Source: Escherichia coli (GTDB taxonomy: Bacteria; Pseudomonadota; Gammaproteobacteria; Enterobacterales; Enterobacteriaceae). Taken from it: DNA of 64,000 nucleotides. The DNA lies in assembly GCF_013315695.1 (NCBI RefSeq), contig NZ_CP054353.1; one strand, 5' to 3'. The position numbers were made by a program, and so were the translations under genes. Shown here piece after piece: positions 45,839 through 64,000 of this stretch (the first letter of the stretch is position 1; each line of letters starts with the position of its first letter). The notes beneath the pieces were generated by a model. That model had not been told where the DNA came from and made no database searches. It worked only from the letters and a program-made list of their open reading frames with translations.

Positions 45839-45853
45839 GGTAATGACTCCAAC

Positions 45854-46357
45854 TTATTGATAGTGTTTTATGTTCAGATAATGCCCGATGACTTTGTCAT
45901 GCAGCTCCACCGATTTTGAGAACGACAGCGACTTCCGTCCCAGCCGTGCCAGGTGCTGCCTCAGATTCAGGTTATGCCGCTCAATTCGCTGCGTATATCG
46001 CTTGCTGATTACGTGCAGCTTTCCCTTCAGGCGGGATTCATACAGCGGCCAGCCATCCGTCATCCATATCACCACGTCAAAGGGTGACAGCAGGCTCATA
46101 AGACGCCCCAGCGTCGCCATAGTGCGTTCACCGAATACGTGCGCAACAACCGTCTTCCGGAGCCTGTCATACGCGTAAAACAGCCAGCGCTGGCGCGATT
46201 TAGCCCCGACATAGCCCCACTGTTCGTCCATTTCCGCGCAGACGATGACGTCACTGCCCGGCTGTATGCGCGAGGTTACCGACTGCGGCCTGAGTTTTTT
46301 AAGTGACGTAAAATCGTGTTGAGGCCAACGCCCATAATGCGGGCTGTTGCCCGGCAT
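45854..46357 (-). CDS. insB: IS1 transposase InsB
   Basis: 167-aa [61 protein letters not shown]... Confidence 0.95.
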
Positions 46358-46551
46358 CCAACGCCATTCATGGCCATATCAATGATTTTCTGGTGCGTAC
46401 CGGGTTGAGAAGCGGTGTAAGTGAACTGCAGTTGCCATGTTTTACGGCAGTGAGAGCAGAGATAGCGCTGATGTCCGGCGGTGCTTTTGCCGTTACGCAC
46501 CACCCCGTCAGTAGCTGAACAGGAGGGACAGCTGATAGAAACAGAAGCCAC
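46276..46551 (-). CDS. insA: IS1 InsA
   Basis: 91-aa [46 protein letters not shown]... Confidence 0.95.
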
Positions 46552-46606
46552 TGGAGCACCTCAAAAACACCATCATACACTAAATCAGTAAGTTGGCAGC
46601 ATCACC

Positions 46607-50338: not shown

Positions 50339-51985
50339 ATGTCAAACAAACCCTTTCATTATCAGGCTCCTTTTCCACTCAAAAAAGATGATACTGAGTA
50401 TTACCTGCTAACCAGCGAACACGTTAGCGTATCTGAATTTGAAGGGCAGGAGATTTTGAAAGTCGCACCCGAAGCGTTAACTTTGTTGGCGCGTCAGGCG
50501 TTTCATGATGCGTCATTTATGCTGCGTCCGGCTCACCAACAACAGGTGGCCGACATTCTGCGTGACCCGGAAGCCAGCGAAAATGATAAATATGTGGCGC
50601 TGCAATTCCTGCGCAACTCCGACATCGCGGCGAAAGGCGTTCTGCCAACCTGTCAGGATACCGGCACCGCGATTATTGTTGGTAAAAAAGGGCAGCGTGT
50701 ATGGACCGGTGGCGGTGATGAAGCGGCGCTGGCACGCGGTGTCTATAACACTTATATCGAAGATAATCTGCGCTACTCGCAAAACGCGCCGCTGGATATG
50801 TATAAAGAGGTGAATACCGGCACCAATCTACCAGCGCAGATCGATCTTTATGCCGTTGATGGCGACGAGTACAAATTCCTCTGTATCGCCAAAGGTGGCG
50901 GTTCGGCAAACAAGACGTATCTCTATCAGGAAACCAAAGCGTTACTAACGCCGGGGAAACTGAAAAATTACCTGGTTGAGAAGATGCGCACGCTGGGTAC
51001 GGCGGCCTGTCCTCCGTATCATATTGCGTTCGTTATTGGTGGAACTTCTGCAGAAACGAACCTTAAAACGGTGAAACTGGCTTCCGCTAAATACTATGAT
51101 GAACTGCCAACGGAAGGGAATGAGCACGGACAGGCGTTCCGCGATGTGGAACTGGAAAAAGAATTGCTGATCGAAGCGCAAAATCTTGGTCTGGGTGCGC
51201 AGTTTGGCGGTAAATACTTCGCTCACGACATCCGCGTGATTCGCCTGCCACGTCACGGCGCATCCTGCCCGGTCGGTATGGGCGTCTCCTGTTCTGCTGA
51301 CCGTAATATCAAAGCAAAGATCAACCGTCAGGGGATTTGGATCGAAAAACTGGAACATAATCCAGGCAAATATATCCCGGAAGAGCTGCGCAAAGCGGGA
51401 GAAGGCGAAGCGGTGCGCGTTGACCTTAACCGTCCGATGAAAGAGATCCTCGCACAGTTGTCGCAGTATCCCGTTTCTACACGCTTATCGCTGAATGGCA
51501 CGATTATCGTTGGTCGTGATATTGCTCACGCCAAACTGAAAGAGCGGATGGATAACGGTGAAGGGCTGCCGCAGTACATTAAAGATCATCCGATTTACTA
51601 CGCGGGTCCGGCCAAAACGCCGGAAGGTTATGCTTCCGGTTCTCTTGGCCCAACGACCGCCGGCCGGATGGATTCTTATGTCGATCAACTGCAAGCGCAG
51701 GGCGGAAGTATGATCATGCTGGCGAAAGGCAACCGCAGCCAGCAGGTGACGGATGCCTGTAAAAAACACGGCGGCTTCTACCTTGGCAGTATCGGTGGTC
51801 CGGCCGCTGTATTGGCGCAGGGTAGTATTAAGAGCCTGGAATGTGTTGAATATCCGGAACTGGGAATGGAAGCCATCTGGAAAATTGAAGTGGAAGATTT
51901 CCCGGCATTTATCCTTGTGGATGATAAAGGAAATGACTTCTTCCAGCAGATACAACTCACACAGTGCACCCGCTGTGTGAAATAA
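50339..51985 (+). CDS. fumA: Class I fumarate hydratase FumA
   Basis: 548-aa [32 protein letters not shown]...; could in principle be the paralogue fumB but flanking manA indicates fumA. Confidence 0.92.
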
Positions 51986-52004
51986 ACAGAGCCGCCCTTC
52001 GGGG

Positions 52005-53430
52005 TAATGCCGATCAGTTAAGGATCAGTTGACCGATCCAGTGGCTGTGTAAGAATCCGGAAACGCTCACTTGTTTCCGGATTTTTTTATGCACATTGGA
52101 CAGGCTCTTGATCTGGTATCCCGTTACGATTCTCTGCGTAACCCACTGACTTCTCTGGGGGATTACCTCGACCCCGAACTCATCTCTCGTTGCCTTGCCG
52201 AATCAGGTACTGTAACGCTACGCAAGCGCCGTCTTCCCCTCGAAATGATGGTCTGGTGTATTGTTGGCATGGCGCTTGAGCGTAAAGAACCTCTTCACCA
52301 GATTGTGAATCGCCTGGACATCATGCTGCCGGGCAATCGCCCCTTCGTTGCCCCCAGTGCCGTTATTCAGGCCCGCCAGCGCCTGGGAAGTGAGGCTGTC
52401 CGCCGCGTGTTCACGAAAACAGCGCAGCTCTGGCATAACGCCACGCCGCATCCGCACTGGTGCGGCCTGACCCTGCTGGCCATCGATGGTGTGTTCTGGC
52501 GCACACCGGATACACCAGAGAACGATGCAGCCTTCCCCCGCCAGACACATGCCGGGAACCCGGCGCTCTACCCGCAGGTCAAAATGGTCTGCCAGATGGA
52601 ACTGACCAGCCATCTGCTGACGGCTGCAGCCTTCGGCACGATGAAGAACAGCGAAAATGAGCTTGCTGAGCAACTTATAGAACAAACCGGCGATAACACT
52701 CTGACGTTAATGGATAAAGGTTATTACTCACTGGGACTGTTAAATGCCTGGAGCCTGGCGGGAGAACACCGCCACTGGATGATACCTCTCAGAAAGGGAG
52801 CGCAATATGAAGAGATCAGAAAACTGGGTAAAGGCGATCATCTGGTGAAGCTGAAAACCAGCCCGCAGGCACGAAAAAAGTGGCCGGGACTGGGAAATGA
52901 AGTGACAGCCCGCCTGCTGACCGTGACGCGCAAAGGAAAAGTCTGCCATCTGCTGACGTCGATGACGGACGCCATGCGCTTCCCCGGAGGAGAAATGGCG
53001 GATCTGTACAGTCATCGCTGGGAAATCGAACTGGGATACAGGGAGATAAAACAGACGATGCAACTGAGCAGGCTGACGCTGAGAAGTAAAAAACCGGAGC
53101 TTGTGGAGCAAGAGCTGTGGGGTGTCTTACTGGCTTATAATCTGGTGAGATATCAGATGATTAAAATGGCGGAACATCTGAAAGGTTACTGGCCGAATCA
53201 ACTGAGTTTCTCAGAATCATGCGGAATGGTGATGAGAATGCTGATGACATTGCAGGGCGCTTCACCGGGACGTATACCGGAGCTGATGCGCGATCTTGCA
53301 AGTATGGGACAACTTGTGAAATTACCGACAAGAAGGGAAAGGGCCTTCCCGAGAGTGGTAAAGGAGAGGCCCTGGAAATACCCCACAGCCCCGAAAAAGA
53401 GCCAGTCAGTTGCTTAACTGACTGGCATTA
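52005..53430 (+). mobile_element. IS4 copy 1 (1426 bp), no target-site duplication
   Basis: 18-bp imperfect terminal inverted repeats TAATGCCGATCAGTTAAGG / CCTTAACTGACTGGCATTA; flanks ccgcccttcgggg vs gtccccagggaga differ. Confidence 0.93.
52089..53417 (+). CDS. insG: IS4 transposase (DDE, IS4 family)
   Basis: [66 protein letters not shown]...; identical to the ORF in copy 2. Confidence 0.93.
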
Positions 53431-54230
53431 GTCCCCAGGGAGACGTTTTCTCCCGTAGCCAGTATTTTTCCATTACGCATCAGAGAGACACCCACGCCCG
53501 ATGCTTTTGTTGCATCTGGTGCTGTGTTAGCAAACACATGTCTGGCACTGTCAGTGGTAGCACCCGAAAGATAAAATGAGAGTTTTTGTTCACTTGAGCA
53601 ATATACGCCAAGGGGTATTTCTGCGCTTCCAGGAAAGTCCGGGAGATTCACGGTGACATTACGACTATCAACGGTGCAACCGCCTGTTGGCATAACAACA
53701 CTGTTATTTGAAATAATATTCCACGTAAAATTACGCGGATTTCCGCTTCCTAACGTGGCAATTTTATACATATGAATACGGGCAATAACTTCCCCTGCTT
53801 TTATGACAACTCCACCGGCCGCTCCGACTGGGGTAATATAGAGTTTTAACGGTAATGGCATCGGTGTCTTATCACCAATATCTAATACATTAGTATTTGT
53901 CGTCAACGGGAAGGGGTAGGTCACATTATTCCAGTACAGTGATCCTTTATATGACTGTAGGGAGCCTGCGAAAGCTGATCCTTGTACCAGGTTTATATGA
54001 TCAGTGTCGTACCAGCCGCCGTAATCATTCCAGCAACTTATATGCTGAGACAAGTCTACAACCAGATTCTGGCCCGGTTGTATTACAGGGTCGAGATTAA
54101 CATAAACAGAGGTTGTACCTGCTCCAATACTTGACCCGCCATCGACATTACAACTGAAGGCAAAAACTTTGCCTGCCATTAATAGAAGATAAATACCGAA
54201 CAGAAGCTTCATACTTATTGTTTTACCCAT
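53431..54230 (-). pseudogene. ydeQ: FimH-like fimbrial tip adhesin (ydeQ-like), C-terminus truncated by IS4
   Basis: 274-aa ORF aligns to FimH-type adhesins (GQNLVVDLS...VMPTGGCTV...VNLPDFPGS...) but stops 7 codons inside IS4 copy 1, missing roughly the last 35 residues. Confidence 0.7.
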
Positions 54231-54289
54231 GATATATCCTAAGGTTAAAAAATTGATTTAAAAAGGAGGCTAAGAAAATCGAATCGACG

Positions 54290-54793
54290 TTATTGCCAGG
54301 TGTAGATCACATTGATTAGCGCCTCGATCGTTCCCTGGCTTGCGTTTCCATTCACCGTGATAGCTCTTGCCTTAAGTGGAAACTGTGCATTACGAGTGAT
54401 CTCATCAACAATAACCGTTTTGCTATCGCCATTTTTTAACGTCGCATCCTGGTCATCCCTTAGCTCTATCTGAATATTTTCGGCTGTACCTTCATTTTTG
54501 TAATACCCCGTATTGTCAGTTGAACCTGTCACGATTGCCGTCACTGCACTTGTTTCAACCGGACAATCGGTTAATGACAAAGTAATATTGTGCCAGCCAG
54601 ATGCAGAACCAGGTTGTTGCAGATTGCGTGTATAAAGATCCCCGAGATTAACGTTAGCTTCTTTGGTTTGAATAGTGCATGGTTTAGCGCCTACCCGACC
54701 ATTAACAGTGATAGTGACATCGGCGGCCTGGAGAGTTGCTGTGAATAATGTGCAAAACGTAGCTAACAGGAACCTCTTGTGAAGTCTTTTCAT
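54290..54793 (-). CDS. ydeR: Fimbrial minor subunit (ydeR-like), 167 aa
   Basis: Signal peptide plus type 1 pilin-like sequence ending ...YTWQ; length matches remembered YdeR. Confidence 0.7.
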   Translation of the reverse strand: MKRLHKRFLLATFCTLFTATLQAADVTITVNGRVGAKPCTIQTKEANVNLGDLYTRNLQQPGSASGWHNITLSLTDCPVETSAVTAIVTGSTDNTGYYKNEGTAENIQIELRDDQDATLKNGDSKTVIVDEITRNAQFPLKARAITVNGNASQGTIEALINVIYTWQ

Positions 54794-54805
54794 ATCTGAC
54801 TCTGA

Positions 54806-55336
54806 TTATTGAAATTCAAGGGTAAAGGTTGCCGAAGCGCTCACCAGTCCAGGATTGACGGACTTCTGAGTTGACTTCAAACGAGCGGAGTAAGGCAAAA
54901 TATTGTTCTGTTCTGGTACCAATGGGATCCACTGCATCTCGGCATGAAGGTCATTCAATTTCACCGGACGCATATTTCCGTCCAGTATTTCTATACCCAA
55001 ACCGGAGGCCGTATTGCTTCCTTCATCCAGTTTCAACAGAGTATTATTTTCTGCATCCTCAATACCGTTAAATGCAACCCGAACTCCCGTTGTCCCTTTG
55101 CTGCATTCACTTAATGTAATCTGAAAAGGGACGGCTGGACTTGTGCTACCGGTCGTTGGAAATTGTCTGGCACTGTTTTTTTGGAGATCTACGGTAAAAT
55201 TAAGCGAATCCGATGAGACTGTGCAGCCATAATCGAGAACGCGCCCGCTAATTTTAATAACGCTATCTGCGGATAAAGCAGAATAGGTGGTTAACCCCAG
55301 ACATAAACCGAGGAAAATAACGTTATTGTATTTCAT
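54806..55336 (-). CDS. ydeS: Fimbrial subunit (ydeS-like), 176 aa
   Basis: Signal peptide plus pilin fold ending ...TFTLEFQ; length matches remembered YdeS. Confidence 0.7.
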   Translation of the reverse strand: MKYNNVIFLGLCLGLTTYSALSADSVIKISGRVLDYGCTVSSDSLNFTVDLQKNSARQFPTTGSTSPAVPFQITLSECSKGTTGVRVAFNGIEDAENNTLLKLDEGSNTASGLGIEILDGNMRPVKLNDLHAEMQWIPLVPEQNNILPYSARLKSTQKSVNPGLVSASATFTLEFQ

Positions 55337-55349
55337 AATCTATTGTTCC

Positions 55350-56149
55350 TTAGCGACAGATTGCTGTCTGCTGGTTCAGCAAGGTTCCAGGAGAGACTGC
55401 AGGAAGCTTGTAATCGACAATACAGTTTGAGTTTTTATCATTGCCCCATGAAACCTGTAATTTCCCTGACTGCGGAAGTCCAGTCAGATAAACCTGACCA
55501 TTTTCCGCGACAATGCTGCCATTTTTATTCTCTCCGTGAGTGACAATTGCACCGAATGGAACGCTTTTATTACCGTACTTCAACGTCATTAATACTTTCC
55601 CGCCGATTTGTGCATTAAATGTTGCTCTGGCAATAGCACCGTGAGTTGGGATGACAGTGACTACGGTTTCATCCAGTTCAACATTATCTGCAAGGGAATT
55701 CGCGTTAAGAGCGACACGATTTTCTCTATATTCTGTCGCAAATGGTAATATGGCATAGCCACGCCAGTCGGTATGAATTCCGGTCTGGTTCTCTATTTTG
55801 ACATTATCAGCGCCAGGAGCCTTAACCAGAACCATTGTGTCGCCCAGCGGCTGTCCAAAGGTGATGCCATCAGCATGAGCAATAATCCCACCACTCATTC
55901 CGTAATAAATCTGGCTGCTGTCACCACTCCGACTGTAACCGACATTCGTATTACCGTAAGCTCCACGATAATTAAGAGAACTGTAACCATTGGTGCCAGA
56001 CGATGTATTACCCCCTTGGGTGTTACCGACCTGAACGCTATAATTCAGGTTATTATCCGGCAGCAGAGTGCCATAAACCCCTGATAGGTTGGTCATGCCG
56101 CCTTTCAAATCGTTTGACATACTGTAACTGGCGTTTGAATTACGAAATG
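55350..56149 (-). pseudogene. ydeT: Fimbrial usher C-terminal fragment (ydeT-like), interrupted upstream by IS2
   Basis: ORF 55350..56177 resembles FimD-family usher C-terminal domains; ORF start lies inside IS2. Confidence 0.7.
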
Positions 56150-56240
56150 TAGACTGGCCCCCTGAATCTCCAGACAACCAGTATCACTTATTTAAGTGAT
56201 AGTCTTAATACTAGTTTTTAGACTAGTCATTGGAGAGCAG

Positions 56241-56606
56241 ATGATTGATGTCTTAGGACCGGAGAAACGCAGACGGCGTACCACACAGGAAAAGATCGCA
56301 ATTGTTCAGCAGAGCTTTGAACCGGGGATGACGGTCTCCCTCGTTGCCCGGCAACATGGTGTAGCAGCCAGCCAGTTATTTCTCTGGCGTAAGCAATACC
56401 AGGAAGGAAGTCTTACTGCTGTCGCCGCCGGAGAACAGGTTGTTCCTGCCTCTGAACTTGCTGCCGCCATGAAGCAGATTAAAGAACTCCAGCGCCTGCT
56501 CGGCAAGAAAACGATGGAAAATGAACTCCTCAAAGAAGCCGTTGAATATGGACGGGCAAAAAAGTGGATAGCGCACGCGCCCTTATTGCCCGGGGATGGG
56601 GAGTAA
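56241..56606 (+). CDS. insC: IS2 InsC (OrfA)
   Basis: [56 protein letters not shown]... Confidence 0.93.
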
Positions 56607-57469
56607 GCTTAGTCAGCCGTTGTCTCCGGGTGTCGCGTGCGCAGTTGCACGTCATTCTCAGACGAACCGATGACTGGATGGATGGCCGCCGCAGTCGTCA
56701 CACTGATGATACGGATGTGCTTCTCCGTATACACCATGTTATCGGAGAGCTGCCCACGTATGGTTATCGTCGGGTATGGGCGCTGCTTCGCAGACAGGCA
56801 GAACTTGATGGTATGCCTGCGATCAATGCCAAACGTGTTTACCGGATCATGCGCCAGAATGCGCTGTTGCTTGAGCGAAAACCTGCTGTACCGCCATCGA
56901 AACGGGCACATACAGGCAGAGTGGCCGTGAAAGAAAGCAATCAGCGATGGTGCTCTGACGGGTTCGAGTTCTGCTGTGATAACGGAGAGAGACTGCGTGT
57001 CACGTTCGCGCTGGACTGCAGTGATCGTGAGGCACTGCACTGGGCGGTCACTACCGGCGGCTTCAACAGTGAAACAGTACAGGACGTCATGCTGGGAGCG
57101 GTGGAACGCCGCTTCGGCAACGATCTTCCGTCGTCTCCAGTGGAGTGGCTGACGGATAATGGTTCATGCTACCGGGCTAATGAAACACGCCAGTTCGCCC
57201 GGATGTTGGGACTTGAACCGAAGAACACGGCGGTGCGGAGTCCGGAGAGTAACGGAATAGCAGAGAGCTTCGTGAAAACGATAAAGCGTGACTACATCAG
57301 TATCATGCCCAAACCAGACGGGTTAACGGCAGCAAAGAACCTTGCAGAGGCGTTCGAGCATTATAACGAATGGCATCCGCATAGTGCGCTGGGTTATCGC
57401 TCGCCACGGGAATATCTGCGGCAGCGGGCTTGTAATGGGTTAAGTGATAACAGATGTCTGGAAATATAG
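56564..57469 (+). CDS. insD: IS2 transposase InsD (OrfB, expressed by -1 frameshift from insC)
   Basis: 301-aa ORF overlapping the insC 3' end in the -1 frame; DDE integrase-type sequence. Confidence 0.93.
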
Positions 57470-57480
57470 GGGCAAATCCA

Positions 57481-58125
57481 AAATGCCGACTGACTGTCTG
57501 TGCGCATCCAATGACTAAAGGGAACATTAAGCGTAAAAGCGAGTAAATGATCCCGATCGTTTTGCCATATATTATTGGAATAGCTGTAATTCAGCGAAGT
57601 CGTAATATCACTAAACGGCACATTTAATCCAAATGATATTTGCTGGTCGCTGCGTGACGTGTTCCAGTAACTTTGGCGACTGGCACTGAAAAATGTCGTA
57701 CCGTAATTTCCAAGCTGCTGAGAGATGCTTATTTGTTCCTGACCACGCTTACTGTAGAACAGATTAAAATAATCAATAAATTGTGTCTGCTCATTGCTGT
57801 CTCCGGTAGGAGGCTTGACGGTGTAACCACTCATTCGACTGTAGGCACTGTCGGATAAGTTATAAAAACCTTGCGTAGAATAGCGATATCCTGCGACCTG
57901 GATATTGGTTCCCGTCTGGTAGAAGGATTTGCTGTAGACGGATTTAATCGATTGCCCGCTGTGACGGGTGCCATCTGCAAGTGTCGTATTGGCCTGCGTG
58001 ATATCGAAAGAAAAGGCACCAAAAAGTCCTAAATCTTTACCAATACCAAGGTTGAAGGCCTGATAATCTTCTGCAATTTGCATTCCGCCATAAGGCGTCC
58101 AGTTTCCTTCCAGTCCATGCATCAA
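57481..58125 (-). pseudogene. ydeT: Fimbrial usher internal fragment (ydeT-like); N-terminal part of the usher absent
   Basis: ORF 57394..58125 is usher-like until it runs into IS2; together with 55350..56149 about 480 codons, roughly half of a full usher; upstream is AT-rich non-coding. Confidence 0.65.
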
Positions 58126-58506
58126 GTCATTCTGTTATTGCTTATAAAACAAGAATCATTCTTGATGGGATATTGCCCTGAGAATATAGTTTCCAGGGTT
58201 ATTACATTTCACGAAGAACGATAATATCTTTAAATTACAAGGACACCTAATCACAACAAGTTTATTGCAGCACTTGTTGTAGAGAGTATTTGCAAAGACA
58301 TTTTATGTCGCTAAATAACATGACGATTTCATTATGCATGTTATTTATAAACCGTGACTAAACAGAATATTATTGCGAACAAGGGAAGTGTCAGGAAAGG
58401 TCAAGAGCGACCAATGGTTTATATGGCTATAAATCATTAGCTATAGTTAATGTTTGCCTGGTGTAACTAACACGGAATTGCTCTAAACAGATAAGTGCAG
58501 GGTTTA

Positions 58507-58761
58507 TTAAAGCTGACCGACAGACTTTCTTAACCTGGTAATATCTCTCTTAGGTGACTCTCCAAACATCCGCGAATATTCCCGACTGAAATGGGATAAG
58601 CTTTCGTAACCGACAACATAGGCTGCAGTGGTGACATCGTAATGTTCATTCAGCATCAGTCGCCTGGCTTCATTGAGGCGTAGCCATTTCTGATACCGGA
58701 GTGGACTCATTCCCGCAAGCTGTATGAAGTGTTGATGGAAAGAGGGGGTGTTCATTTGCAC
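58507..58761 (-). pseudogene. yneL: AraC-family regulator C-terminal HTH fragment (yneL-like)
   Basis: 84-aa ORF with AraC-type second HTH (...YVVGYESLSHFSREYSRMFGESPKR...); no intact N-terminal domain upstream. Confidence 0.6.
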
Positions 58762-59150
58762 GCGGTTTGCCAGCCTGACTCTTCAACGCAGGGAAGATGC
58801 GGCAAACGGCAAACCTGCATACCAGCCAGCCTATATCCGGTATGCACAGGCCAATCATGAAAGAGGAGAGGCTTTATGTTCTGGAACCCTGAAGTAATAA
58901 CGACGACCGGAAAATCGCTTCGCATCACTCAAATCACATTTAACATAATATACATTATGCGCACCAACATAAACCAAGGAAGAATCCAGTCGTTGGCGGT
59001 CATGATTGTCGTGCTCATTAATAACGACCAAACCCCATATTAACTGCCGCATCAAAAACGCCATGATCCGCGCGATGCCTGGGCCTCCATCTGATTCATG
59101 AAAGTGACAACGGTCTGGCATAACGGCTGGCTAACCACTCCGGTGCATAC

Positions 59151-61119
59151 TTAAAGGTGTGCGCGCCGTTGGCTAACTTCGTTAAGTTCGCCGGTCACGT
59201 TTTTTAGCGTTAACAGACCGTCACTAGCAATATTTCCTCTGCCTAACCCCTGCGTATTGTCGAGGCTGACTTCCGCATTTGGGCTAATGCTGGTTAACGC
59301 ATTGTAGCGTGCATTAAGCCCCTCGATAGCCAGTGTTCCCCCTGTAACATTCAGGTTTCCGCCACCTGTCAGTTCGCCCTGACTGATCCCACCTTTATTC
59401 ACCGTCAGCGAACCTTCTTTGAACAAAACAGTCGAACCCATCAGCCCGGTGAATGTCTCCACCGTCTGGGCCGATCCATTAAGATCGACGATGGCCGCGT
59501 TGCTGATGTTCAGTTCCCGGGTGTTGCCCAGCGCGCCATCCGCATCGGTACGTAATGTCCCCATCTGAACATAGGTTGCCCCCTGATAGTCGTTCTGACC
59601 GTTGGAAAGCGAAACCTGTCGCACCGTATTGATTGCCAGATCCCCTTCACCACCGATTTTTGCCGACATATCGGCCGTTGCGCCATAGGCTCCGCCATGT
59701 TCGGCTAACGTCAGCTTTTGCCCTCCATGGATGTTCAGCGCTTTCAGCCCATAGTTAACGTACAAACCATCACCTGGTGCGGTCGTGAGGCGGAATCCAT
59801 AATCACCCTCGGCGACCACCGTTCCGTTTTGCGCAATGTGTAACGTTTTGTCCGCTTCCACCTCGTCGCCCTGTAAATCACGTAACGTTAATGAGCCACC
59901 CGACCCAATAACCGTTTGCGCCTTCACCAGTTGAACGCCGACATGGCTATCATCGTGTTCCAGCAAATTGAGCGTCGTCAGAGGGTTATTCGCCATGGGA
60001 TCATTCCACGGTTTAGGCACGTCGATAAGCACGTCGCCCGTCCCGTTTACCTGATAGTTACGGCCTTTCCAGGTGTAGTCACCCGCGCCGACAACCAGCG
60101 TATCGACGCTGATATATCCCTCTGCAAGCGTCGCAGCAGGAATATCCGTATCGAAAATGAGCGTACCGCCATTCATGGCCAGTCCACCAATGGATTGCTC
60201 TCCCACTTTTACCGATGTGGTATTTTCACTGTCAGACTGCAACATCGCGTGAGTAAGCGCAGCGGTGTTGTCGCGTTCCAGAGTGAAGGTACTGTCTTTC
60301 AGTTGGGCAACACCGGCGAATTCAGTCCCTGTTGCATGGGTAAAGCCAAATATCTTGTCGGAGGATGACAGCTGCACTCGCATCAAGCCATCGCCTTTGA
60401 GCGCATTGGTCAGCGTGTAATCTCCTGCGCTGTTCGTTGATGCGAGAATGTCGAGCGTACCGGGGCTTGCAATGGTGACTTCACTCGAACCCATGCCTGT
60501 TACCCCATCTGCCGTATGTGACGCAATAGTCAGGAGGCCGTCATTGACCAGCGTTTTACCGCTATAAGTATTCCCTGCATTGAACACCGTATGGCCTGCA
60601 TCATGCATCACTTTTCCGTCTTTATCGTCACCCGTAATCAGCATATCGACCTGGTAGCCGGCATCACTGTTATTGGTATGATTAAAGACAAAAACGCCTT
60701 CGCCAAGACCAAACTCCACTTTCGTCGCATTGGTAATAAACCCGGCATCTGCCGCCACCTCACCGTGAGCAGCACCAATGTTTAGCGTTCCTACAGCAGG
60801 CTCAAAAACACCTAAGTAAACTTCTCCACCTTCGACATTCAGCGTGCCGTTATTCGTCAGGGTTAACGTACCTGTGCCAGTCGTCCCTACGTTCATATTG
60901 AATGTTTCAAGAAGAGAGTTCTGCCCATCCACCCGCACGTCGCCCTTACTTTTGTCATTCAGAGCTATCTGTGTATCACGCGCTTTAACTATACCTCCGG
61001 TGGTAATATTCAGTTCACCCGTACCTAATACACCGACCTGTAGCAATTGGGCGTTAGTAGATGACGTTTTTAAATTCCAGAGACTATCCGTTGAAATATT
61101 AACTATCCCCTTACCGGAG
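59151..61119 (-). pseudogene. AIDA-I-like autotransporter adhesin passenger domain, C-proximal part (no beta-barrel translocator follows)
   Basis: ORF 59151..61046 (631 aa), Gly/Thr/Asn-rich beta-helix-type repeats (TGTGTLTLTNNGTLNVEGG...); ends ...EVSQRRAHL without a barrel domain. Confidence 0.7.
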
Positions 61120-62545
61120 TAATGCCGATCAGTTAAGGATCAGTTGACCGATCCAGTGGCTGTGTAAGAATCCGGAAACGCTCACTTGTTTCCGGATTTT
61201 TTTATGCACATTGGACAGGCTCTTGATCTGGTATCCCGTTACGATTCTCTGCGTAACCCACTGACTTCTCTGGGGGATTACCTCGACCCCGAACTCATCT
61301 CTCGTTGCCTTGCCGAATCAGGTACTGTAACGCTACGCAAGCGCCGTCTTCCCCTCGAAATGATGGTCTGGTGTATTGTTGGCATGGCGCTTGAGCGTAA
61401 AGAACCTCTTCACCAGATTGTGAATCGCCTGGACATCATGCTGCCGGGCAATCGCCCCTTCGTTGCCCCCAGTGCCGTTATTCAGGCCCGCCAGCGCCTG
61501 GGAAGTGAGGCTGTCCGCCGCGTGTTCACGAAAACAGCGCAGCTCTGGCATAACGCCACGCCGCATCCGCACTGGTGCGGCCTGACCCTGCTGGCCATCG
61601 ATGGTGTGTTCTGGCGCACACCGGATACACCAGAGAACGATGCAGCCTTCCCCCGCCAGACACATGCCGGGAACCCGGCGCTCTACCCGCAGGTCAAAAT
61701 GGTCTGCCAGATGGAACTGACCAGCCATCTGCTGACGGCTGCAGCCTTCGGCACGATGAAGAACAGCGAAAATGAGCTTGCTGAGCAACTTATAGAACAA
61801 ACCGGCGATAACACTCTGACGTTAATGGATAAAGGTTATTACTCACTGGGACTGTTAAATGCCTGGAGCCTGGCGGGAGAACACCGCCACTGGATGATAC
61901 CTCTCAGAAAGGGAGCGCAATATGAAGAGATCAGAAAACTGGGTAAAGGCGATCATCTGGTGAAGCTGAAAACCAGCCCGCAGGCACGAAAAAAGTGGCC
62001 GGGACTGGGAAATGAAGTGACAGCCCGCCTGCTGACCGTGACGCGCAAAGGAAAAGTCTGCCATCTGCTGACGTCGATGACGGACGCCATGCGCTTCCCC
62101 GGAGGAGAAATGGCGGATCTGTACAGTCATCGCTGGGAAATCGAACTGGGATACAGGGAGATAAAACAGACGATGCAACTGAGCAGGCTGACGCTGAGAA
62201 GTAAAAAACCGGAGCTTGTGGAGCAAGAGCTGTGGGGTGTCTTACTGGCTTATAATCTGGTGAGATATCAGATGATTAAAATGGCGGAACATCTGAAAGG
62301 TTACTGGCCGAATCAACTGAGTTTCTCAGAATCATGCGGAATGGTGATGAGAATGCTGATGACATTGCAGGGCGCTTCACCGGGACGTATACCGGAGCTG
62401 ATGCGCGATCTTGCAAGTATGGGACAACTTGTGAAATTACCGACAAGAAGGGAAAGGGCCTTCCCGAGAGTGGTAAAGGAGAGGCCCTGGAAATACCCCA
62501 CAGCCCCGAAAAAGAGCCAGTCAGTTGCTTAACTGACTGGCATTA
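61120..62545 (+). mobile_element. IS4 copy 2 (1426 bp) with perfect 13-bp target-site duplication
   Basis: Same terminal repeats as copy 1; ccccttaccggag at 61107..61119 and 62546..62558. Confidence 0.95.
61204..62532 (+). CDS. insG: IS4 transposase
   Basis: Translation identical to copy 1. Confidence 0.93.
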
Positions 62546-64000
62546 CCCCTTACCGGAGGCATTTCCTCCGATAAATCCATAGCCCGTTGAATTAAGGGTG
62601 GCACCATTACTGACATTTACGATGCCGCTACCAAAATTACCGACATTGATACCTACAGTATCGAACGATGATGTCGCATCCATCAGGTTCAGTGTGCCGA
62701 TACCGCTTGCTTTATCGCCCAAAAAAGTAATATTTTGCGATACGAACTTACCGCCATCGCTGATATTGAGGTTTCCGACGCCCGCTACACCAATGGTGGT
62801 ATAGACATTCTTATTGACCTCCCATATCCCCCCCGTGGTGATGCTAACCTTCCCGACGCCGGTTTCTCCATAACCGAGTGAACTTCCTCCGTTGCTGACA
62901 ACAAGCCCCTCATTACTGATATTCATTTCGCCGTGGCCGTCATAACCAAGATTAGTTCCGAGATTAGTGATAACGGAGTTCTTATCCTTAACAGTAATGT
63001 TGCCTGTGCCTGTTTCTTTCATCCCCGCAGTGATAATTCCCGAATCTACTTTGCCTTCACTAGAGACATTAAGTTCACCGTCGCCAGCATCACCGATATA
63101 GATATAGCGGAAAGCTTCGCCCGTTCCGAGGAAATTCCAATGCCCTTTATCGGTCACGTTGACGACACCGTGGGAACCGTCCTGAACGCCCACCAATGAA
63201 TATTCTTTGTTATTAATCAGTCCATTATTGGAAATATTGACTTTGCCATTACCGAAATATCCATTATAGAGTCTGCGTACCGTGATGACAGAGTCTTGAT
63301 CCTGCACATTCAGGGTTCCGATACCGGTGGCATTGCCTCCGATAATCGTATTTTCAGCCGTAATTAGCCCACCCTCGCGAATAGTCGCTTCCCCAGTTCC
63401 TTGATTACCAATTTGAAATTCAATTGAGGAATCGTTATTTTTTATTAGCCACTCACCGCCCTTTTCAACGACAACCTTACCATTACTGTTCGCTTGATAT
63501 CCTACAGTGGCGACTATTGAACTCGTGACGTAACCCTTATCCGTAATATTTAATGAGCCCGTACCGTAACTCCCTATTTCGAATAATTCGGTCGTCAGAA
63601 CCGAGTCCTCTCCCTCAACATTAACCGTCCCGACGCCTCCTGTCGAAGAACCTATCCTTAAATATCCTCCGTCAACGTGACCCTTCTGTTTAATATTCAG
63701 CGTCCCCGTTCCGGATTGACCCACATTTAAAGGCCTTGCATTATTTCCGCTATCATACAATCGCCAGGTGCCACCCAAAACATTAACGGTGCCCTCCGAG
63801 TCCTCATTACCACCAATGACGCTGGTAGTAATAGTGGTTAAGGAGGCATTACCGCCAGCCAAAATATTAAGCACTCCAGTGCCATACCACCCAACCAGGT
63901 AGGCATCGTAAGCAACATCAGTATTAATATTGGTAATCTGACCATTATCAACTTCCAGACTCGCACCAGACGCTGAACCGCTTAGTGCCAGCAAAACACC
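62546..64000 (-). pseudogene. AIDA-I-like autotransporter passenger domain, N-proximal part (continues beyond window end)
   Basis: ORF 62543..63994 (483 aa) with repetitive G/N/T-rich motifs (GTGTLNIKQKGHVDGG..., GTGEATIREGG...); stop lies 3 nt inside IS4 copy 2. Confidence 0.7.

Follow-up and report, generated by a model that had tools for sequence, protein, structure and literature searches.

Two directly repeated IS4 copies stand close together in this part of the Escherichia coli chromosome, and they raise the question of whether the DNA between them is the cargo of a transposon, an expendable remnant open to deletion, or a stretch that the chromosome needs. In the window (the whole stretch of 64,000 nucleotides analysed here), copy A (52005..53430) and copy B (61120..62545), both on the plus strand, are 100% identical over 1426 bp, as was established by an alignment with 100-bp flanks and by a base-by-base scan, which detected no further IS4 fragments in the window. 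The start-to-start spacing of these direct repeats is 9115 bp, and the interval between them (53431-61119) comprises 7,689 bp. In these respects the original prediction, which had described an identical, directly oriented pair 7.7 kb apart and proposed nucleotide alignment of the copies as its check, was borne out, since no divergence between the copies was found. The match runs on for one coincidental flanking base (52004/61119).

The element itself is an ordinary E. coli IS4. It encodes a single DDE transposase (52071/52089-53417 in copy A; Pfam Nterm_IS4, 3e-33, and DDE_Tnp_1, 9e-32), and its terminal inverted repeats, beginning with TAATGCC, are imperfect, with 16 of the first 18 terminal positions matching between the ends, which are consistent with the -AATR- signature of the IS4 subgroup (PMC2266710). 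The IS4 of K-12 (insG; ISfinder IS4, IS4 family, IS4 subgroup) has the same length, terminal inverted repeats, single transposase with Nterm_IS4 and target duplications of 12-13 bp, about one turn of the helix (12 bp at the K-12 copy, 13 bp at copy B, 13 and 12 bp at the two parental sites of copy A in strain AF3, described below), and differs only by four substitutions: 1422/1426 positions (99.7%) are identical to the MG1655 feature annotated 'insertion sequence:IS4'. The copy number is different: the lineage of the window has about 18 copies, K-12 has one, and the median for the species is about one. Variants at positions 21 and 310 of the element are private to AF3, so that gene conversion among the copies need not be invoked.

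Copy B is a simple insertion within an autotransporter gene of the ECSE_1600/yneO type. It is bordered by a 13-bp target duplication, CCCCTTACCGGAG, at 61107..61119 and 62546..62558, which is present as a single copy in the uninterrupted gene of SMS-3-5 (a 13-bp coordinate overlap). On its left lies the middle fragment of the gene (59172..61119, minus strand), whose 3' part is deleted and whose 5' part was detached by the insertion; on its right the 5' part, with the ESPR signal peptide end (62546..64000, minus strand), continues past the window edge. For the 631-aa autotransporter fragment Pfam returned no match, and its identification comes from DNA homology and RefSeq annotation only.

The flanks of copy A do not match each other: CCGCCCTTCGGGG stands on the left (51992..52004, within the fumA terminator hairpin) and GTCCCCAGGGAG on the right (53431..53442), and the copy has no target duplication of its own, which is a recognised mark of recombination between IS elements (PMC11708052). 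The left neighbour, fumA (50339..51985, plus strand; class I fumarate hydratase), is non-native to this position and matches at 100% the fumA genes of AF3 and MSB1_4I, annotated there as fumB. The right neighbour is the 5' fragment of ydeQ (53431..54230, minus strand), a gene of a FimH-like adhesin (Pfam FimH_man-bind, 5e-78) which lost its C-terminus through the IS4; the annotations of AF3 and MSB1_4I call it partial. In AF3 both parental insertions are present in opposite orientation, each with its own duplication: one IS4 lies between fumA and fumC with the 13-mer CCGCCCTTCGGGG on both sides, and another lies in ydeQ with the 12-mer GTCCCCAGGGAG on both sides. The ydeQ site is empty in MS 21-1, with one copy of the 12-mer. 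In MSB1_4I, the fumA-IS4-ydeQ' junction is found as in the window (100% coverage and identity), together with the reciprocal junction, in which the half-duplications are swapped (ydeP-ydeQ3'-GTCCCCAGGGAG-IS4-CCGCCCTTCGGGG-fumC-tus).

Since AF3 carries both parental insertions and MSB1_4I both the chimera and its reciprocal product, copy A is a chimera that marks one endpoint of an IS4×IS4 inversion of 129,335 bp. The inverted segment contains the chromosome dimer resolution site dif, 6,369 bp from one of its ends, as well as TerB, TerC and tus; the Ter positions were taken from the AF3 loci, the only place where these two sites were found, and a scan of the window revealed no Ter sites. The window covers one of the two inversion junctions, and the reciprocal one, lying outside it, is presumably carried by the source genome as it is by MSB1_4I. 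The crossover point within copy A is unmappable because the IS4 sequence does not vary among the copies of the window, MSB1_4I and MS 21-1. Neither the missing target duplication nor the 129-kb inversion endpoint had been noticed at the first reading of the sequence.

A junction within a 1.4-kb repeat could also be a misjoin made in assembly; the true genome would then resemble AF3 and have ydeP on the left side of copy A. Such an error is favoured by the IS4 copy number of the lineage (about 18, all identical), and the full configuration of the window, that is the chimeric copy A together with an unsplit interval, was found in no complete RefSeq genome. We nevertheless regard a misjoin as improbable, as the independently assembled complete genome of MSB1_4I shows this chimeric junction in identical form along with its reciprocal counterpart, and the parental copies are inverted relative to each other, as an inversion of this kind requires.

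The inversion has much in common with those recorded in the long-term evolution experiment (LTEE), where about 70% of the large rearrangements came from recombination between IS elements (PMC4173774). As in the inversions between IS150 or IS1 copies described there, two pre-existing, identical and inversely oriented elements recombined, and, as in IS-mediated inversions generally, the recombinant copies bear mismatched half-duplications and the reciprocal product exists (in MSB1_4I). It differs from the LTEE inversions (PMC4173774) in its small size (129 kb), in its strong asymmetry around dif, with 6.4 kb on one side and 123 kb on the other, in carrying dif, TerC, TerB and tus along, and in being accompanied in MSB1_4I by a second, nested, IS2-linked inversion. 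A comparison of the two flanks of a single IS copy is sufficient to expose a rearrangement of 129 kb which relocates all four of these elements.

The interval enclosed by copies A and B consists of decayed DNA of the ydeQRST fimbrial, hipBA and autotransporter loci. The original prediction described the whole content of the interval as pseudogenised or truncated, and for the fimbrial and autotransporter genes the decay is confirmed by truncated reading frames: ydeQ, the usher, yneL, hipA and autotransporter genes are all incomplete. The usher gene persists as a C-terminal fragment (55350..56149, minus strand; Pfam Usher positions 380-549 and PapC_C) and a middle fragment (57481..58126, minus strand), its remainder being deleted together with the chaperone and major subunit genes (2.9 kb relative to SMS-3-5). 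A yneL-like fragment of an AraC-type HTH gene (58507..58773, minus strand) was recognised by Pfam HTH_18 and by alignment with K-12 yneL, and hipB and most of hipA are deleted, so that hipBA is reduced to 146 bp in two hipA scraps of 53 and 93 bp (59047..59192, minus strand; BLAST against the K-12 locus). The claim fails for four components, which are intact: the full-length fimbrial subunit reading frames ydeR (54290..54793, minus strand, 167 aa) and ydeS (54806..55336, minus strand, 176 aa); a complete IS2 of 1331 bp (56150..57480, plus strand), a simple insertion which broke the usher gene, with a 5-bp duplication AAATG (56145-56149/57481-57485) and an uninterrupted site in SMS-3-5; and dif. 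An Rfam scan of 51500-64000 gave no RNA family at the gathering score.

The dif sequence, GGTGCGCATAATGTATATTATGTTAAAT (58938..58965, minus strand), is an exact 28-bp match to E. coli dif, with the XerC and XerD arms around the 6-bp centre, at zero matches expected by chance; it is the only copy in the window and is likewise exact in K-12, AF3, MSB1_4I and SMS-3-5. Its neighbours are those of K-12, yneL (a fragment here) and hipA (remnants here). The setting differs from that in K-12: hipBA is reduced to scraps, the inversion has shifted the chromosomal position of dif by about 117 kb, and identical direct repeats now lie on either side of it, at distances of 5.5 kb and 2.2 kb. When dif was relocated alone by 85-150 kb, its activity fell 23-32-fold (PMC2680272), and the zone of dif activity depends on converging KOPS (PMC5357621). 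Here dif lay inside the inverted segment and would have moved with its own polarised flanks, hence the polarity that orients FtsK should still converge on it. Three of the four KOPS to the left of dif in the window, and all five in the sampled AF3 loci, are directed at dif, which agrees in direction with such convergence, very few motifs being involved in either case; the GC skew left of dif in the window has positive values in most bins, the last bin giving -0.097. In the genome of the window, dif presumably remains functional.

The presence of dif bears directly on the prediction that the repeats are a ready substrate for RecA-mediated deletion of the interval. The first part of it stands, in that RecA can use the repeats as a substrate and A×B recombination is feasible in mechanistic terms; it is incomplete in that the interval carries dif, presumably the only one of the chromosome, and the deletion product would consequently be deficient in dimer resolution and counter-selected. 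Dimers arise in about 15% of cells each generation, and where resolution fails completely (k≈0.17) the cost is about 15-17% inviable divisions per generation (PMC2680272), so that selection against dif loss may be expected from the published work on K-12. A search for deletion variants, performed by listing every complete genome with the right junction of copy B, revealed none among 5,426 complete genomes, with little power, as only AF3 and MSB1_4I carry copy B; both of them retain the autotransporter fragment and the duplication to its left.

A notion akin to the deletion prediction, that the interval is neutral junk whose loss would be harmless and would eventually occur, draws on the truncation of most of its genes, on three different deletions that three relatives carry in this same stretch, and on the frequent deletion of IS-flanked dispensable DNA (PMC4173774). 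Against these points stand the exact dif, the sole one in the window, the retention of its neighbourhood in 5407/5426 complete genomes, and the course of the independent deletions, which come within 75 bp of dif on one side and spare it in every relative. Given also the cost of failed dimer resolution cited above, we consider this notion very unlikely. The correction matters: the seemingly worthless interval contains the dimer-resolution site of the chromosome, and the IS4 pair itself is routine. As dif is unannotated in RefSeq feature tables, scans based on annotation or on a reading of the sequence will call such a region dispensable although it is not.

Some members of the IS4 family, among them IS10 and IS50, form composite transposons, and the identical elements on both sides of the segment recall Tn10/IS10 and Tn5/IS50, so that the arrangement had been called composite-transposon-like, with the fimbrial and autotransporter remnant as cargo mobile in one piece. 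This we reject as scarcely credible, since, in distinction from those transposons, no duplication is shared by the outer flanks, which read CCGCCCTTCGGGG left of copy A and CCCCTTACCGGAG right of copy B, copy B has a duplication of its own, the interval is native and colinear with the ydeQ-dif-yneO locus of K-12, SMS-3-5 and MS 21-1, for each IS an unoccupied site is documented among relatives (SMS-3-5 for copy B, MS 21-1 for ydeQ), copy A arose by recombination between two separate insertions, and the unit was found at no other location in complete RefSeq genomes, no evidence of mobility being seen.

Taken together, the results argue strongly for two recent and independent IS4 insertions in the native terminus region, one of which was later involved in an inversion containing dif, with deletions between A and B expected to be purged; we hold this history to be highly probable. 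In a lineage with about 18 IS4 copies, the ordinary element would have inserted once into the autotransporter gene, where copy B remains a simple insertion, and once into ydeQ, where copy A presumably started. Recombination of the latter copy with a third IS4, which lay between fumA and fumC in the opposite orientation, would then have flipped the 129-kb segment (ydeQ 5' end ... dif ... TerC ... TerB-tus-fumC) and placed fumA beside copy A. The interval would represent decayed coding DNA around one cis element, dif, at which XerCD/FtsK presumably resolves chromosome dimers. Homologous recombination between A and B is possible but would remove dif, so that we expect deletants to appear and then be lost to selection, without reaching fixation.

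All the components of the arrangement are already known. The three related genomes provide natural examples consistent with terminus inversions being tolerated when dif moves with its polarised flanks. A wider reading, which we find evenly balanced between right and wrong, is that the lineage has undergone nested IS-mediated inversions, IS4×IS4 first and then the IS2-linked one in MSB1_4I, each containing dif. In the genome of the window, the innermost barriers to the clockwise fork, TerC and TerB, would have been flipped across dif together with tus, giving a mirror-image and much wider fork trap, and dif would be excisable between direct repeats. If this is true, AF3, the strain of the window and MSB1_4I would make up a ready-made isogenic set for studying the natural limits of dif/Ter rearrangement, and the same three strains could be used to measure how often dif is lost spontaneously and at what cost.

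The two IS4 copies, copy A (52005-53430) and copy B (61120-62545), are identical over their 1426 bp, as was determined by aligning 51905-53530 with 61020-62645 and by a base-by-base scan, which detected no further IS4 fragments in the window. They have the same orientation, are 9115 bp apart from start to start and leave 7,689 bp (53431-61119) between them. The termini of the element form an inverted repeat with 16 of 18 positions matching, its ORF comprises the Nterm_IS4 and DDE_Tnp_1 domains (Pfam), and only 4 positions distinguish it from the K-12 MG1655 feature 'insertion sequence:IS4'. Considering these facts, the original prediction of two identical, directly oriented IS4 copies was correct and, judging by its sequence, the element is IS4 itself. 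The identity of the copies is explained by a lineage-specific IS4 expansion: the whole genomes of the close relatives AF3 and MSB1_4I carry IS4 at ~18 places each, and that of MS 21-1 at 13, whereas across the species the median is 1 and the maximum 33. Private IS4 variants were noted in AF3, where position 21 is G and position 310 is T in the copy between fumA and fumC (locus L004, 14691-16116); copy B of this genome (locus L001, 17943-19368) shares the T at position 310, a hint that gene conversion took place among the copies of AF3.

Copy B has CCCCTTACCGGAG on either side, i.e., a 13-bp duplication, and its target is unbroken in SMS-3-5 (13-bp coordinate overlap); copy B is thus a simple insertion. 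Copy A is flanked by CCGCCCTTCGGGG on the left and GTCCCCAGGGAG on the right, with no duplication. On the left it adjoins fumA, before which come manA, ydgA and uidC; in K-12 all of these genes lie ~100 kb away from ydeQ. In the closest genome, AF3 (NZ_OZ547117.1; 8 substitutions over ~14.7 kb of the left flank outside IS4), one IS4 is situated between fumA and fumC and is bordered by CCGCCCTTCGGGG on each side, and another, of opposite orientation, resides in ydeQ, where it is bordered by GTCCCCAGGGAG on each side and ydeP lies past it; in MS 21-1 the ydeQ site is empty. Since AF3 displays both parental insertions, each with its own duplication, copy A joins the left half of the fumA/fumC insertion site to the right half of the ydeQ site. 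The exact chimeric junction was found in MSB1_4I (NZ_LR898874.1) at 100% coverage and identity, as was the predicted reciprocal junction, ydeP-ydeQ3'-GTCCCCAGGGAG-IS4-CCGCCCTTCGGGG-fumC-tus. Copy A therefore bears the signature of a reciprocal 129-kb inversion, being a scar of homologous recombination between inverted IS copies. Recombination of this kind is a recognised cause of missing duplications (PMC11708052), and in evolution experiments with E. coli it is where large rearrangements mainly come from (PMC4173774). On the AF3 chromosome the inverted segment spans 876103-1005437 (129,335 bp), with the 28-bp XerC/XerD chromosome dimer resolution site, dif, located 6,369 bp from one end. The crossover point is unmappable, as the IS4 copies involved are all identical in the window, MSB1_4I and MS 21-1.

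Several features of the parental sites were observed additionally. The fumA/fumC target (window 51975-52004) corresponds to the stem-loop, GCCGCCCTTCGGGGCGGTTTTTTT, in the intrinsic terminator of fumA, and is occupied by IS4 in many lineages. The right flank of the MS 21-1 copy at this site (locus L011, 2001-3426) begins with CGCCCTTCGGGG, giving a 12-bp duplication versus 13 bp in AF3; an indel, an error in sequencing or a separate insertion event could account for the one-base difference. Strains M15 and MMC-J-0105 possess IS4 at the identical ydeQ position (the junction at window 53431) and in the same orientation, the query being ~97.3% identical overall, and SW070919 possibly does so (80% coverage), which suggests that a target-specific IS used the site again or that recombination transferred the insertion.

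The sequence between the copies was placed by megablast against 5,426 complete E. coli genomes and maps to the ydeP-ydeQRST-(yneL)-dif-hipAB-yneO-lsrK region. Its gene content, as assessed by Pfam and by comparison with aligned K-12 and SMS-3-5 sequence, comprises a 5' fragment of ydeQ (FimH-like adhesin), full-length ydeR and ydeS, C-terminal and middle fragments of the usher, an intact IS2 (1331 bp, 5-bp duplication AAATG), a fragment of the AraC-type yneL, hipA scraps of 53 and 93 bp, and the middle part of a yneO/ECSE_1600-type autotransporter gene that continues with its 5' part beyond copy B. The description of this interval as a decayed fimbrial/autotransporter remnant was fair, but the statement that everything in it is pseudogenised was not, because ydeR, ydeS and IS2 are intact. 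Upstream in the window, uidB/uidC is broken by an IS1 copy (45839-46606), and uidA and lsrK of the relatives are annotated as frameshifted, which indicates general gene decay in the lineage.

In the terminus region of E. coli, dif lies beside hipA. When the window was searched for the 28-bp dif sequence, one exact match emerged, at 58938-58965, with 0 expected by chance. The identical 28-mer is situated between yneL and hipA in K-12 (1,590,750-1,590,777, where the RefSeq feature table has no dif entry) and is exact in AF3, MSB1_4I and SMS-3-5 as well; its 301-bp neighbourhood is present in 5,407 of the 5,426 genomes. The exact match and the K-12 context thus identify the interval, at the sequence level, as holding the site where XerCD/FtsK resolves chromosome dimers.

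The inverted segment includes tus, the adjoining TerB (AF3 878596; locus L004, 18597) and TerC (AF3 985165; locus L008, 45166). TerB and TerC fall outside the window; from their AF3 positions inside the inverted segment, these two innermost clockwise-fork barriers should be flipped in the source genome, i.e., lie reversed on the other side of dif, so that the normal inner fork trap would be mirrored. As dif itself is inside the segment, its flanks moved together with it. This matters because dif displaced alone by 85-150 kb loses activity 23-32-fold once bounded by non-permissive KOPS, the FtsK-orienting motifs (PMC2680272); a dif activity zone has been described (PMC5357621). KOPS point toward dif in 5 of 5 cases in the sampled AF3 loci and in 3 of 4 in the window left of dif; these counts are small, and the geometric argument is independent of them. 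A second rearrangement in MSB1_4I, with endpoints at the IS2 of the interval and a Qin-prophage exonuclease gene, likewise has dif inside. Of the two IS2 copies of MSB1_4I (L002, 8001-9331; L005, 16646-17976), one differs from the window IS2 at 12 positions and the other at 0; the flanks on the exonuclease side, CCTCA and CATCA, form no clean 5-bp duplication.

The proposal that the pair is a substrate for RecA-mediated deletion holds as far as the perfect 1.4-kb direct repeats 7.7 kb apart are concerned, but the product would lose dif. Breaks and Holliday junctions recur in the terminus (PMC8213236); dimers form at ~15% per generation, and k≈0.17 when resolution fails completely (PMC2680272). 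Given this published cost, a product without dif would be expected to be under strong purifying selection, and the interval to be protected from such deletion through its dif. No deletion variants were seen in what is a very small sample, with copy B carried only by AF3 and MSB1_4I among the 5,426 genomes, both of which keep the autotransporter fragment and the duplication left of copy B. The usher-chaperone-major-subunit stretch beside dif has undergone three different, non-nested deletions, in the window and MSB1_4I (window 58126-58465), AF3 (L001, 14128-15287) and MS 21-1 (L010, 18855-19890), and the erosion of hipAB reaches within 75 bp of dif, which is exact in each of these genomes. The three distinct deletions imply that erosion recurred independently once the IS elements had inserted, with dif staying exact, and the whole pattern is consistent with selection to keep dif. 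The reading of the pair as a composite transposon is rejected, as the outer flanks have no common duplication, the insertions are independent, and the supposed cargo is native, colinear and without a second location among the 5,426 genomes.

Taken together, the observation is confirmed and its earlier interpretation partly supported. IS4, IS2, dif and inversion between IS copies are each already known; the instance is new in detail, not in kind, and the exact configuration of the window is absent from all 5,426 complete E. coli genomes searched by megablast. A more novel reading, about as likely as not, is that AF3, the window strain and MSB1_4I constitute a natural strain set with rearranged dif/Ter architecture.
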